IMG/VR virus record: IMGVR_UViG_2778261506_000003
DNA length: 4,324 bases
Source: a virus
Taxonomy: Duplodnaviria > Heunggongvirae > Uroviricota > Caudoviricetes
Direction: 5' to 3' (one strand)
Shown: in pieces, positions 1-4,324 of the stretch
How the letters are laid out: each line of letters begins with the position of its first letter
How positions within the stretch are numbered: the first letter of the stretch is position 1
Notes under the pieces: generated by a model
The model's input: only the letters and a program-made list of their open reading frames with translations
What the model was told of the DNA's origin: nothing
Databases searched by the model: none
Made by a program: the position numbers and the translations under genes

Positions 1-869
1 CGTTTCCCCATGCCGTAGCGCGGATGGGTCAGCATATCCCACAGACACCAGGCCATGTTGTTGCTGTATGCCGGTTTAAACGTTCCGTCCCAGATACCGC
101 TGTATTGCCGCGTCTGCGGGTTATAATTCGACGGCACCTGCAGAATACGCCCGCGCAGATGATAATTACGGCTCACCTGCTGGCTGCCGAACTGCTCCGA
201 GTCCACCTGCACGCCGAACAGTGCCGTGTTCGGGTAGCACTGTTTCACATCGATAATTTCGGTGTATGACGACCAGAGCGTTTTGTTCTGCAGCTGGTCT
301 GTGGTGCTGTCCGGCGTCATCCTGCGCATCCGGATATTAAACGGGCGCGGCGGCAGGTTATCCACCACCACCGAGGCCAGATACTGTGAGGTGGTTTTGC
401 CCTTAATGGTGATGTCTTTTTCCGTCACCCAGCCACCGTTACGTTGTATCTGAACCAGCAGGCGGACTTCCGATGGATTCCTGTCCCCCTTTGAGGTGGT
501 TTCCACCAGTGCCTGCACGCCGAAAGTAAAACGCAGACGGTCAATGTTTGCCGACGTGATGGTCCGGGTGATCGGCGTGTCATATTTCACTTCTGTACCG
601 AGCACCGTCTCGGAGCCGGAGGATTCAAATCCCTCCGGCGGTGTCTGCTCCTGCTCACCGGCCCGGAACACCACCGTGACGCCGGATATATTGGTATTCC
701 CCTCACTGTCCAGCACCGGCGTACTGTTCAGCAGCACGCTTTTTAATCCATCCACCGGACCTTCAACCGGCCCTTCGCTGATGGCATCGATCACACTCAG
801 CAACTGCGTGGACTTCAGGTTGTCCTTCGCTTCGCGCGGAGTATGCCCCTTACTGCTGCCTTTACCCAT
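1..869 (-). CDS. J: Tail tip / host-specificity protein J (central tail fibre), N-terminal 289 codons; 3' end lies beyond the window start
   Basis: Minus-strand ATG at 869-867 opens a frame that runs to position 1 with no stop. The translation begins MGKGSSKGHTPREAKDNLKSTQLLSVIDAISEGP and ends in the window with ...NNMAWCLWDMLTHPRYGMGKR, matching my recollection of lambda gpJ. GGAG sits 8 nt upstream of the ATG. The ORF track omits it because it has no in-window stop. Confidence 0.93.
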   Translation of the reverse strand, partial: MGKGSSKGHTPREAKDNLKSTQLLSVIDAISEGPVEGPVDGLKSVLLNSTPVLDSEGNTNISGVTVVFRAGEQEQTPPEGFESSGSETVLGTEVKYDTPITRTITSANIDRLRFTFGVQALVETTSKGDRNPSEVRLLVQIQRNGGWVTEKDITIKGKTTSQYLASVVVDNLPPRPFNIRMRRMTPDSTTDQLQNKTLWSSYTEIIDVKQCYPNTALFGVQVDSEQFGSQQVSRNYHLRGRILQVPSNYNPQTRQYSGIWDGTFKPAYSNNMAWCLWDMLTHPRYGMGK

Positions 870-877
870 TCCTCACG

Positions 878-881
878 CTCC
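878..881 (-). promoter_or_regulatory. Shine-Dalgarno (GGAG) for J
   Basis: Minus-strand sequence reads ...tatGGAGcgtgaggaATGGGTAAA; GGAG has an 8-nt spacer to the J ATG at 869. Confidence 0.4.
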
Positions 882-891
882 ATAAACGACA

Positions 892-911
892 AAACCGCCC
901 GGAGGCGGTTT
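892..911 (-). terminator. I-J intergenic stem-loop followed by a U-rich tract (possible weak intrinsic terminator or attenuator)
   Basis: Inverted repeat aaaccgcc (892-899) / ggcggttt (904-911) with a 4-nt loop. On the minus-strand RNA this is AAACCGCC-UCCG-GGCGGUUU followed by UGUCGUUUAU, lying between the I stop (930-932) and the J start (869). Confidence 0.25.
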
Positions 912-929
912 CACATAAAACGTTTTTCA

Positions 930-1577
930 TCAGCGACCAATCACCACAACCTGACCACCATCCCCTTCGTCTGCCGTGCTGATCTCCTGAGAGACCACCC
1001 GCGACCCCACGCGCATTTCACCGTACAGAACGGGCAGAACATTGCCCTGGGCAACCATGTTATCCAGTGACGAGAAATAGGTGTTCTGTTTGCCGTTATC
1101 TGTACTGGCTGCCGTGGGCGTCCTGGCTTTCGGTGCCAGCATCTGCGCCACACCGCCCAGGATCATACTGGCCCCTGCCGCATACATACCCGATACAGCC
1201 GTGGCCCCCAGCCAGCCCACAGGGTTCCACCATGCAACCGCAATCAGCGCCGCCCCCAGCACTGCCTGAAAAATACCGCCACTTTTAGCACCCGCCGGAC
1301 GCGGTACGATGTGGATCACGGCACCATTTTCCAGCGGCTCATTAAGACGGGCAGACAATTCAGTTTCACCTGCATCACGCCCGGCAATGCGTACCTGGTA
1401 CCAGCCGTCGCTCAGTTTCTGACGAAATGCCGGGATCTGCATGGCCAGCGCCCGGATGGCTTCGGACCCCGTTTTCACTCGAAGGTCGCTGCGGCGGCTA
1501 AATCGTTGTAAATCCCCGTAAAGGCAGATGCGTGCCATGCCCGGTGACGCCAGAGGGAGTGTGTGCGTCGCTGCCAT
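930..1577 (-). CDS. I: Tail tip assembly protein I (gpI-like; N-terminal ubiquitin-like domain ending in Gly-Gly, then a hydrophobic segment)
   Basis: 215-aa ORF starting MAATHTLPLASPGMARICLYGDLQRF, as I recall for lambda gpI. The ...AKSGG motif at about residue 100 is followed by a hydrophobic stretch (IFQAVLGAALIAVAWW). Its 5' end overlaps the 3' end of K by 103 nt (1475-1577), the same overlap lambda has. Sits between K and J. Confidence 0.9.
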   Translation of the reverse strand: MAATHTLPLASPGMARICLYGDLQRFSRRSDLRVKTGSEAIRALAMQIPAFRQKLSDGWYQVRIAGRDAGETELSARLNEPLENGAVIHIVPRPAGAKSGGIFQAVLGAALIAVAWWNPVGWLGATAVSGMYAAGASMILGGVAQMLAPKARTPTAASTDNGKQNTYFSSLDNMVAQGNVLPVLYGEMRVGSRVVSQEISTADEGDGGQVVVIGR

Positions 1578-2218
1578 TTGTCGGTGTACCTCTCTCGTTT
1601 GCTCAGTTGTTCAGGAATATGGTGCAGCAGCTCGCTGTCACCACAGTAAATGGCGGCATGATTCGGCACCGATGAACCAAAACAGCACAGCAGCACATCG
1701 CCCGGCTGCGCCGCTGACAACGGCACCTGATACAGCCCTGTGGCCTCCAGATTATCCAGATAGAGATTCTGACCGTGACGCCACCAGTTATCCCCGCGAT
1801 GAAAATCCGGCATCTCAATTCCCGCCAGATGGTAAGCGTCCCGGAACAGCGTGTAACAGTCCGTCACCCCGTGCTCAAAGCGCCGCCCGGTGAGATGCGG
1901 CACACAGCGGAATTTATGAATCGCCCCCCGGCAGACCAGCCACCACGGCAAATCACTCTGTACCTGCAGCCGCCGGTCGGCCTCACTCAGCCAGGGCAGA
2001 CCACCGGGGTGGCTGTGGACCAGCGCCACAATCTCTCCCTGCATTTCTGCACTCAGCCAGTCCTCCGGCGACATACGGAAATACGCCTCCGGCTCACCGG
2101 AGATATTCACGCAGGGAAAATATCTTTCCTCCTCCGGCGTTCTCACCACGAAGCCGCACGACTCCGCTGGCGCACATCGCCGGGCGTGCGCCAGAATCGC
2201 TGATTCTGTCTCTGTCAT
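1475..2218 (-). CDS. K: Tail tip assembly protein K (gpK-like; JAB/MPN metallopeptidase domain plus NlpC/P60 cysteine-peptidase domain)
   Basis: 247-aa ORF from the ATG at 2218, which lies 5 nt after the L stop. JAMM motif HSHPGGLPWLSEAD (H-x-H-x7-S-x2-D) with an upstream Glu in AESCGFV. NlpC/P60-like Cys/His residues in the C-terminal half (VTDCYTLF, PNHAAIY, LLHHIP). An alternative internal start (ATG at 2074, preceded by GGAGG with an 11-nt spacer) would give the 199-aa form annotated for lambda. Confidence 0.9.
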   Translation of the reverse strand: MTETESAILAHARRCAPAESCGFVVRTPEEERYFPCVNISGEPEAYFRMSPEDWLSAEMQGEIVALVHSHPGGLPWLSEADRRLQVQSDLPWWLVCRGAIHKFRCVPHLTGRRFEHGVTDCYTLFRDAYHLAGIEMPDFHRGDNWWRHGQNLYLDNLEATGLYQVPLSAAQPGDVLLCCFGSSVPNHAAIYCGDSELLHHIPEQLSKRERYTDKWQRRTHSLWRHRAWHASAFTGIYNDLAAAATFE

Positions 2219-2223
2219 GGGAT

Positions 2224-2922
2224 TTACTGCGAAAGTTTGTTAATGGAAAGGAAGCTGCCAAAGTTGCCGACATTATTGCGAAACTTACAGCCACTCAGGC
2301 ATTTGCTGCATTTATCCTTCGTGATATCGGACGTCGGCTGGTCATATTCATCCGCGACCGCCGGACCGCTATAACCGCACTCATCGCCGCGATAGGTCCA
2401 GGTGCAGGTGTTGGCCAGCATGATACGTCCCGGAAAAACAGCGCCATCCGTTTCAGTCGGCGTGGACAGTACAAAAGAGGCACTGACCGCGCTCAGTTCG
2501 CTGCACTGCTCGATGCGCCAGCGGCTGATCACCTCCTGCTCCGGATCGGCTTCGCTGTTTCCGTTGACGAAGTTCACCGCATCCAGAAAGCGGGCGTAAA
2601 CCTTACGCCGGACCACCGTTCCGCCGACCAGACTCTGCAGATCTTCCGCCATCCCGGTGATCATGCCGTGCAGGTTAGAGACCGTCAGTGTCGGACGGGC
2701 AGCACTGCCCTTGCCGTTCATCTCAAATCCACTCCCCTGAATGGGATAGGCCTGATACTGCCGACTCTGCCAGGTGACAGACTCACCTTTTTCGTTCTGC
2801 TCATTACAGAAAAAGTAGCGATCCCCGCCTACCTCGGTCAGGTCGATTTCCCAGAGCACCACGCTGGCCGACTGCTCCGCACGAATGCATTCATTCAGCG
2901 TTTCCTGTTGTATGTCCTGCAT
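2224..2922 (-). CDS. L: Tail tip protein L (gpL-like; C-terminal cysteine cluster)
   Basis: 232-aa ORF, the same length as lambda gpL and with an N-terminus (MQDIQQETLNEC...) that I recall as lambda-like. Five Cys in the last ~60 residues (CTWTYRGDECGYSG...KCSKCLSGCKF). Its start overlaps the M stop by 1 nt (TGATG at 2920-2924). Confidence 0.9.
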   Translation of the reverse strand: MQDIQQETLNECIRAEQSASVVLWEIDLTEVGGDRYFFCNEQNEKGESVTWQSRQYQAYPIQGSGFEMNGKGSAARPTLTVSNLHGMITGMAEDLQSLVGGTVVRRKVYARFLDAVNFVNGNSEADPEQEVISRWRIEQCSELSAVSASFVLSTPTETDGAVFPGRIMLANTCTWTYRGDECGYSGPAVADEYDQPTSDITKDKCSKCLSGCKFRNNVGNFGSFLSINKLSQ

Positions 2923-3218
2923 CAGATCACCACTTCGTCAAACTGACACGAAAAATCGGTATAGGTGATATGTTCTGTCGCTGACCACGTTCGACACACC
3001 ACTCTGATTTTTCTGTTAATACCCGGCGGGCGCCAAAAAAAAGATTTATAGCCTTCATGCCGGGCTAAAAATTTTTCAAATGAATCACGTTCATTCGCCT
3101 CAACTTTGAAATCACAGGTGAAAACGCGCAGAGAATGATTAAGTCCATTTGGACTTCGTTGCTCATAACCATCGCCAAATCTTACAGTTTTTATCGATGG
3201 TTTATTTTCTGTTTTCAT
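2922..3218 (-). CDS. M: Tail tip protein M (gpM-like, divergent from lambda M)
   Basis: ORF ending at 2922. Preferred start is the ATG at 3218 (MKTENKPSIKTVRFGDGY..., 98 aa), preceded by GAGGA with a 4-nt spacer; the track's longer ORF begins at a GTG at 3260. The VRFGDGY motif and length resemble lambda M (109 aa) as I recall it. Lies between H and L. GC is low (about 40%) compared with L-K-I-J. Confidence 0.8.
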   Translation of the reverse strand: MKTENKPSIKTVRFGDGYEQRSPNGLNHSLRVFTCDFKVEANERDSFEKFLARHEGYKSFFWRPPGINRKIRVVCRTWSATEHITYTDFSCQFDEVVI

Positions 3219-3252
3219 TCCATCCTCTGGTAACCAGTGAAATTCTTCCGTA

Positions 3253-4073
3253 TTAGCCACTTAACATTCCCCCATCACGTCGCATATTTAACAGATTGCC
3301 CTGCACCCGCTGATCAACCATCCCCATAAGTGCTTTTATTGCCTGAGGGCCAATCTCTCCATTCTGGCCGTCATTTTGAATAGTGATTTGGTATACAGGG
3401 GCATAGGTAATATCTCCGCCTCCATTACCACTTTTACTATTAATAGCTCTGACACCAAGAGAACCATCGGAAGTTCGTGTTAATGGCATAATGGCTTCCG
3501 GACCAGCCTCACCAAAAACACCAGCCCCTCTTGCAAAAGCAAAAAATTGCGGGGAATCATAAATACCGTTCGAATACGTGTTCAATGACGGAGACTCATA
3601 AACACCGCCCTTTGCATTCGGAATAAATTTACTAATAGCACTCCCGATAGTTCCTAAAATCCCCCCAGAAGAACTGTTACTAATGCTGTCGAAAATCCCA
3701 GTAATTGAAGCCTTTAATGCTATTCGACTAAGATCCGAAATCACGGAAGTAGCGAAAGAACGAAAATTTGCCTTGCCTGTCGTGACAAAATCACCCAGCG
3801 CATCGGTCATTCCATCAAACATCTGAGTCGTGGTTGATTTTATCTGCTCACTGATATCCTTAGTGTCATCCAGCCAGTTATTGAATCCCTGGGAGGCACC
3901 ACTAACCCAGTCTCCTGCCTGAATATCGAGCTGCTCGTTTTTCTGTCTGACAATTTCTTTTTCTCGTTCCAGAGCATCATTCAGAGCCTGCATTTTCTCC
4001 TGAAAAACATGATTTGACATCCCACGGGATTTATCTGCATAGTCACGTTCAAGTTGCAGACGCTGATTGTTAT
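3253..4073 (-). pseudogene. H: Tail tape-measure protein gene (H-like), C-terminal ~270 codons only; the 5' part is separated by an IS5-family insertion
   Basis: Open frame ending at stop 3253-3255, 34 nt upstream of the M start. Low-complexity, Gly/Ser/Ala-rich C-terminal region typical of siphovirus tape-measure proteins (...NAKGGVYESPSLNTYSNGIYDSPQFFAFARGAGVFGEAGPEAIMPLTRT...), with an upstream coiled-coil-like segment (QEKMQALNDALEREKEIVRQKNEQL). The frame continues 5' into IS-derived sequence at 4074, so the track's 328-aa ORF is chimeric. Confidence 0.7.
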
Positions 4074-4089
4074 GGAAGGTGCGAATAAG
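4074..4089. repeat. IS5-type terminal inverted repeat (IRR)
   Basis: 16-bp GGAAGGTGCGAATAAG at the junction with tape-measure sequence. The flanking tetranucleotide 4070-4073 is TTAT. Confidence 0.7.
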
Positions 4090-4220
4090 CAGGTCATTTC
4101 TTCCCAAGCTGACTCGTTGATTAAAATTTCGCGGATCTGGGCCGATTTTTTTCCCGCAAACACATCGAATCAGCCTATTTAGGCTATTTTTTCCACCATT
4201 TCTGGCGTTATTTCCGGTTT

Positions 4221-4324
<104 letters not shown>

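Follow-up and report, generated by a model that had tools for sequence, protein, structure and literature searches.

The genomes of lambdoid phages are mosaics in the sense of Botstein's modular theory, and the comparison of HK97 with HK022 made by Juhala and co-workers in 2000 is said to have found sharp joints at gene boundaries. Here we analyse such a joint between the tail genes M and L in a window of 4,324 nucleotides (the window being the whole stretch of viral DNA that was analysed; IMG/VR record IMGVR_UViG_2778261506_000003, Caudoviricetes). Sharp joints at gene boundaries and the co-transfer of interacting structural genes are both established for lambdoid phages (PMC9836094, PMC3945230). 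The described mosaics show the same abrupt fall at a gene boundary, from more than 90% nucleotide identity to none that is detectable, their modules are functional units (tail shaft, tape measure protein and distal tail protein versus hub and fibre), and exchange takes place among the phages and prophages of one host; in none of these respects is the window different in kind.

Among described systems, the tail tip complex of bacteriophage lambda (C-terminus of gpH, gpM, gpL, gpK, gpI and gpJ; PDB 8iyk and related entries) has the same order of components and the same Pfam families as the window. In lambda, gpM is the hexameric distal tail protein and forms the last six-fold ring. With one face it binds the last ring of gpV; through its E-loops it is stacked, by electrostatic contacts, on a ring of three-fold symmetry built from the gpL HDI and gpJ HDII domains, and the C-terminal helix of gpH rests on the gpI tripod (PMC10721106). 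Hence, with a joint between M and L, the tape measure and the tube-like parts of six-fold symmetry fall on one side and the three-fold hub on the other. The likeness of the window to lambda is divided along the same line: L, K and the N-terminus of J are 93-98% identical, whereas M is 42% and the C-terminus of H 29% identical, and both M and H are AT-rich in the window.

We are confident that the M|L mosaic joint is real, as composition and homology break there, the relatives of the two sides are discordant and the same boundary recurs with other M/H lineages. The window itself very probably covers the tail tip of an Escherichia prophage, lambdoid and of Rac type, and has two histories. All its genes are encoded on the minus strand. 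M (2922..3260, distal tail protein of 112 amino acids, GTG start) is the last gene of an AT-rich Rac-type module, and L (2224..2922, hub protein of 232 amino acids) is the first gene of a GC-rich lambda-type cassette.

The step in composition is large. The first-pass annotation had read a GC contrast between J, I, K and L and the M/H side from sampled segments, and the computed values bear it out, with 56-60% on one side (J N-terminal part 56.6%, I 59.9%, K 59.4%, L 55.8%) versus 41-44% on the other (M 41.0%, H fragment 44.2%). The GC content at third codon positions (GC3) is 0.71 in J, 0.62 in I, 0.67 in K and 0.67 in L versus 0.35 in M and 0.38 in H. Sliding GC in 200-nucleotide windows drops from 0.55-0.62 to 0.40-0.45 across positions 2800-3000. 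The maximum-likelihood single change point in composition falls after 2883 (2-lnL support 2868-2939), with a log-likelihood ratio of 36.6 versus a maximum of 14.6 in 300 block shuffles, and the same likelihood analysis finds no second change point within either side of 2883. Synonymous codon usage differs between L+K+I+J and M+H (chi2 152, 40 degrees of freedom, p 5e-15), while the controls within the sides give p 0.35 for J+I versus K+L and p 0.17 for M versus H. The composition is thus not uniform, and the step that a sliding-GC and codon-usage plot had been proposed to reveal is present.

Homology breaks at the same place. Nucleotide identity to lambda is 90.7% over window positions 1-2944, and past 2944 no nucleotide similarity to lambda is detectable. 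M is as divergent from lambda M as had been supposed (41.9% amino acid identity). The relatives of each side, when looked up separately, differ: L has 116 phage records at amino acid identities of at least 90%, lambda and 434 included, whereas M has 10 phage records at at least 99%, all with the same joint, and its next best match reaches at most 50%. The H fragment has the same pattern of relatives as M.

In a three-way maximum chi-square test, we compared the window with lambda and with the metagenome contig ENA_k141, the closest M/H relative found. Informative sites at which the window goes with ENA_k141 outnumber those at which it goes with lambda by 327 to 43 in H and by 133 to 21 in M. 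The balance is reversed in L (159 sites with lambda versus 17 with ENA_k141) and in J (126 versus 12). The maximum chi-square breakpoint is at M codon 112, the last codon of M, with chi2 445; the maximum of the permutation null is 19.3, and 0 of 500 permutations reach 445. The proposal that the tail-tip genes come from two lineages is upheld by this breakpoint together with the different nearest relatives of the two sides.

In the fine alignment the window and lambda agree fully at positions below about 2880, and some sites in 2899-2911, which belong to L, still match the Citrobacter sedlakii relative of M. Placing the crossover inside L was considered and rejected: L codons 5 and 13 resemble the M-side lineage, too few to shift the breakpoint off the boundary. 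The joint lies within about 2880-2944, an interval that has its centre at the TGATG stop/start overlap at 2922. This interval (2880..2944) holds the last 22 nucleotides of M, the overlap itself (2922-2924) and the first ~14 codons of L. A switch near 2922 had been predicted, and the end of homology at 2944, the change point at 2883 and the chi-square breakpoint at the last codon of M all agree with it. Likewise, the span 2224-4073, in which the break had been located, comprises exactly L, M and the H fragment.

The joint is common in Escherichia. We searched 5426 complete E. coli genomes with a joint-spanning probe (2545-3300) and an M/H probe (2945-3700). The joint-spanning probe is covered to at least 80% in 716 genomes (about 13%) and the M/H probe alone occurs in 721, so that the joint is fixed in this prophage lineage and cannot come from faulty assembly. 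M is at least 99% identical at the nucleotide level in 670 of the E. coli genomes, and the same joint occurs in the 10 phage records and in Shigella flexneri and Escherichia ruysiae representatives. Among the genomes that share the joint (E. coli, Shigella, E. ruysiae), M/H is 98.6-100% and L-J 81-100% identical in nucleotide sequence. Since L-J is variable and M/H near-invariant, the cassette side apparently keeps exchanging with other prophages.

The boundary is not confined to this lineage. Lambda-type L is found in 4202 of the 5426 genomes, in a median of two places per genome, and its matches in these genomes end at window position 2944, 2933, 2925 or 2874. Four M/H types (lambda, PhiR49_2, mEp460/PhiR55_1 and the Rac type) adjoin one L-K-I-J cassette, the M/H of the other types being 29-50% identical in amino acids to that of the window. 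The L, K, I and J N-terminus that accompany the other M/H types are 92-100% identical to those of the window, except for I of lambda (77%) and of PhiR49_1* (87%). The same M/H classes appear in a wider set of 113 loci. PhiR49_2, mEp460/cdtI and PhiR55_1 thus have the same L-K-I-J cassette (92-100% amino acid identity) next to an M/H of their own, which gives analogous joints at the same boundary. Their M/H is 39-50% identical to that of the window and less AT-rich (GC3 0.50-0.56), and mEp460 has a 10-nucleotide spacer where the window has the M/L stop/start overlap. By these comparisons of sequence, exchange has taken place repeatedly at the boundary of M and L.

In relatives of the window, the L-K-I-J cassette runs on into lom, stf and tfa. 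The functions carried by the cassette are those of the hub, of assembly proteins and of the host-recognition fibre. The variation of L-K-I-J fits gene conversion of a multi-copy cassette by co-resident lambdoid prophages. We tentatively suggest, as a possibility a little short of even chances, that M|L is more than one among many joints and serves lambdoid tails as a preferred plug-in point. A single host-range cassette of L-K-I-J and fibre genes would then circulate in E. coli among at least four lineages, otherwise unrelated, of tail shaft, tape measure and distal tail protein, and be overwritten continually by gene conversion among prophages that share a host. The E-loop of gpM, which docks on the gpL/gpJ ring, would act as the universal adaptor and be kept constant in every M lineage. 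In that case, an exchange of all that lies downstream of M could redirect host range across the lambdoid phages.

The joint is an ordinary, textbook case of lambdoid mosaicism of a kind already known, and the same sequence stands in public annotated genomes and phage records. Neither PMC9836094 nor PMC3945230 names the M|L boundary specifically, and our literature search on an M|L joint or an intact Rac tail returned only general treatments of lambdoid mosaicism. The present analysis adds that the AT-rich side is of Rac type, where the breakpoint falls by a formal test, how frequent the joint is in E. coli and that the boundary recurs with four M/H lineages. Taken by itself the case is of small importance, as a formally tested and clean example of modular exchange. 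It shows that L-K-I-J, the cassette for hub and host recognition, travels as one block, independently of the tape measure and the distal tail protein; the M|L boundary would be a natural cut site for host-range engineering. Annotators should expect two histories inside one tail-tip complex, and prophages typed by their tail genes will come out in conflict on the two sides of ~2922.

The identity of the AT-rich side follows from an intact relative. A prophage of E. coli 63-2 is 99.8% identical to window positions 1-4073, and its intact H has 1077 codons. The gene content before H in this prophage comprises ydaY, the tail tube, head genes with a P22-like capsid protein, terminase, ynaK and trkG. 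Both ydaY with the 5' end of H and the ynaK-trkG segment are 99.3-99.4% identical to K-12 Rac, with 99.4% for the former. The SPF_0923 record contains the same prophage; its GC lies at 42-51% over the ~13 kb from M upstream to terminase, versus 52-63% in L to J and in part of the fibre genes. By gene content and identity, the AT-rich side is a Rac-type prophage virion module that extends from terminase through M; the linkage to Rac is seen in the E. coli 63-2 relative, and the window itself ends in IS5.

The cryptic prophage Rac of E. coli K-12 (trkG-ynaK-ydaY-ynaA/tmpR-lomR::IS5Y-stfR-tfaR) is of the same lineage as the M/H side of the window and has the same flanking genes as the intact relative. 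However, in K-12 Rac the part from mid-H to lom is deleted, and hence it has no M, L, K, I, J or joint. The window keeps the 3' end of H through J and has its IS5 in H, whereas K-12 Rac has IS5 in lomR. K-12 Rac is a deletion derivative of the prophage type to which the E. coli 63-2 relative belongs: it matches trkG-ynaK-ydaY and the first ~935 nucleotides of H (ynaA/tmpR), and then lom follows. Positions 1-5000 of ON032529.1 ('Salmonella phage SPF_0923') hold chromosomal ompN, uspF and sitABCD beside tail fibre genes, and of these chromosomal genes ompN and uspF are neighbours of Rac in E. coli K-12, too. With these host genes, SPF_0923 looks like an Escherichia-type prophage region with a host flank rather than a packaged Salmonella phage genome.

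As for the origin of the joint, lambda is known to gain DNA from defective prophages, Rac included, via short and diverged homology (De Paepe et al., PMC3945230). In the same work exchange proceeds mainly by Rad52-like recombinases such as Red-beta and RecT of Rac, and illegitimate exchange is below detection (PMC3945230). At the boundary, all four M types have an island of the form TTTGAnnAnGT...CTGATGCAGGAYAT. Together with the long conserved L-J DNA, this short island would make a homology-guided replacement possible. We suggest that recombination between co-resident lambdoid phages or prophages, most likely homology-driven, produced the joint. One crossover would have taken place in the long conserved L-J DNA and the other in the short island shared by every M type, where the 3' end of M meets the 5' end of L. 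Phage Rad52-like recombinases (Red-beta, RecT of Rac) might have catalysed the exchange on the short diverged homology.

The same joint could also come from illegitimate recombination at a random position, having survived only because both proteins stay intact when the break falls exactly between their genes; this alternative bears on the mechanism and leaves the existence of the joint untouched. Illegitimate joining with subsequent selection is reportedly the classical view of Hendrix and Juhala on sharp gene-boundary joints. The breakpoint exactly at the last codon of M agrees with it, as do the lack of detectable nucleotide similarity to lambda M in all of M except its last ~22 nucleotides and the fact that ~70% of lambdoid mosaics bear no trace of flanking homology (PMC3945230). 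However, a short island that all four M types conserve lies exactly at the boundary, and repeated homology-guided exchange accounts more easily for the reuse of this boundary by at least four lineages of M/H across thousands of prophages. The absence of detectable illegitimate exchange in the work of De Paepe et al. (PMC3945230) points the same way. We regard illegitimate joining as unlikely, albeit worth serious consideration.

It is less probable still that the direction was the reverse, a lambda-type phage having taken up a Rac-type block of head, tail-shaft, H and M genes instead of a Rac-type phage taking L-J. A single exchange is symmetrical and the window bears no directional sign. On the other hand, in the intact relatives the AT-rich composition and the Rac markers trkG, ynaK and ydaY lie upstream of the joint, and it is the L-J cassette that has many different partners; downstream of the joint, the comparison covered L-J, lom and the fibre genes (about 10 kb).

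We give practically no weight to the explanation that M/H became AT-rich and divergent through gene-specific mutation, selection or fast evolution, with no recombination. Among lambdoid phages M and H are indeed more variable than L, K and the N-terminus of J. However, lambda's own M and H have a GC3 of 0.65-0.66, similar to that of lambda L-J, and in 45 M-L pairs from distant genera GC3 is matched: GC3(L)-GC3(M) is 0.001 +/- 0.069 with a maximum of 0.14, and the value of the window, 0.33, is 4.7 standard deviations outside these control loci. The site patterns in the three-way test switch abruptly at one codon, and low GC continues for about 13 kb upstream across unrelated genes. Lambda GC3, the control loci and the breakpoint test together refute this explanation.

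The break might also be put down to chimeric assembly or to the IS5 nearby, whose end is 1.15 kb from the joint and whose exact junction with H is contiguous in none of the 5426 genomes. This explanation is refuted by the M|L joint without an insertion sequence in 716 independently assembled genomes, in the 10 phage records and in Shigella flexneri and E. ruysiae, and its probability is negligible.

Several points weigh against exchange by homology between prophages as we propose it. The mechanism is one that we infer from sequence patterns. Traces of flanking homology are seen in only about 30% of mosaics (De Paepe et al., PMC3945230), and the boundary island is only about 20-40 nucleotides long. 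The island is also explained by protein constraint on the FE/DxVV end of M and by translational coupling. A clean unrecombined parent of the M/H side was not found among the protein database, genome representatives and viral contigs; a lambda-type parent exists, while the candidate for the other parent, ENA_k141, has 80% nucleotide identity and is itself stepped at L/K. As to the working of the hybrid, the assignment of the E-loop in M comes from a monomer model with a pLDDT of 51-57 in the loop, the functionality of the hybrid tail is at the level of a hint, given by the phage-named records (vB_EcoS-...) that carry the joint, and the copy in the window is certainly defective, because its H is truncated.

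The search for the parent returned ENA_k141 (ENA ERZ27254723 k141_25771, 2-8738; M 83% identical), a 1-kb Logan contig and C. sedlakii (M 75% identical), all other matches being at most 55%. The adjoining L is 78% identical in both ENA_k141 and C. sedlakii, with a GC3 of 0.38 and 0.61, respectively. ENA_k141 is the best candidate for the unrecombined arrangement. We do not treat it as a proven parent because of its own GC3 step between L and K. Along this contig GC3 is 0.38 in H, 0.28 in M and 0.38 in L, then 0.51 in K, 0.45 in I and 0.51 in J, and the step may represent a joint one gene further downstream (L|K). K of ENA_k141 is not called as an intact gene.

The hybrid would work since the joint matches the structural seam between gpM and gpL-gpJ. 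M of the window belongs to Pfam Phage_min_tail and matches the solved lambda gpM (8iyk_M) at E 2e-25. Across all M types, no part of M is better conserved than the E-loop motif FGDGYxQR..GL. Its invariant columns, F28-R35 (F G D G Y. Q R), G39 and L40, lie in a predicted hairpin of residues 21-43, which the model places where the E-loop is expected. In H, the last ~50 residues contain a motif common to the M/H types, I.N.G.NG...RDGG..S.

The gene order of the window is H-M-L-K-I-J on a single strand with lambda-like overlaps. The 1-nucleotide M/L and the 103-nucleotide K/I overlaps are those of lambda, whereas the H/M overlap is 8 nucleotides versus 4 in lambda. Every product scores above the curated cut-off of its own Pfam family (Tape_meas_lam_C, Phage_min_tail, Phage_tail_L, Prok-JAB with NLPC_P60, Lambda_tail_I and FNIII-A_GpJ).

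On the lambda-type side, the 5' part of gene J (1..869, minus strand; tail-tip host-specificity protein) comprises the first 289 codons and continues past the window edge; it has the FNIII-A_GpJ domain and is 98.3% identical in amino acids to residues 1-289 of lambda J. Gene K (1475..2218, minus strand; 247 amino acids) has JAB/MPN and NlpC/P60 domains (Prok-JAB and NLPC_P60) and is 95.5% identical to lambda K across the 198 residues of the reference annotation. L (Phage_tail_L) is 93.5% identical to lambda L. The closeness to lambda assumed in the first-pass annotation thus holds for J, K and L and less so for gene I (930..1577, minus strand; tail tip assembly/plug protein of 215 amino acids, Lambda_tail_I), which is 76.7% identical and contains an internal mosaic patch. 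On the other side, the 3' fragment of gene H (3253..4073, minus strand; tape measure protein, Tape_meas_lam_C) comprises the last 272 codons and belongs to the AT-rich Rac-type module. Its C-terminus is 29.2% identical in amino acids to lambda H, and the fragment is 99-100% identical to H of E. coli 63-2 and of the SPF_0923 record.

H stops at 4073 as a fragment because of an IS5 insertion or rearrangement. The end of the IS5 element occupies 4074..4324, with the terminal repeat GGAAGGTGCGAATAAG at 4074, and matches IS5/ISKpn26; it is 99.6% identical to IS5Y of K-12 and 98-99% to ISKpn26/IS5D. The exact H/IS5 junction has no contiguous match in the 5426 complete E. coli genomes or in the S. 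flexneri and E. ruysiae representatives. In other genomes, IS5-family insertions are found elsewhere in the same H gene. An open reading frame of 328 amino acids at 3253-4239 on the minus strand is a chimera, with its GTG inside the IS5 end and reading into the H fragment, and is not the real start of H.

The patch in gene I (~1050-1500) is 65-83% identical to lambda in nucleotides, with flanks at 92-99%. As these alignments read, the 77% identity of gene I to lambda is due to a separate and smaller internal mosaic patch. At residues ~100-150, a hydrophobic and Gly-rich central segment, two alleles are found, that of lambda and PhiR49_1* being 65-83% identical in nucleotides to that of the window. 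In the first nine sequences the lambda I allele was paired with lambda-type H/M, and in lambda gpI supports the C-terminal helix of gpH, which together gave the idea that the I allele co-varies with the H type. This idea was rejected: locus L096 has Rac-type M/H and an I only 76% identical to that of the window, which is the level of lambda I, and the PhiR49_2-type loci L123, L135 and L161 also have I at 76-79%.

Finally, reference lambda (NC_001416, ~5270) is without one G in gene K, with GAGGC-TATTTCC versus GAGGCGTATTTCC in the window (~2075-2085, K codon ~46). The missing G splits K in the reference, so that the annotated protein begins at an internal Met, has only 199 amino acids and lacks the first half of JAB/MPN. 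In the re-sequenced lambda PV340536.1 the G is present and K has 247 amino acids, as in the window.

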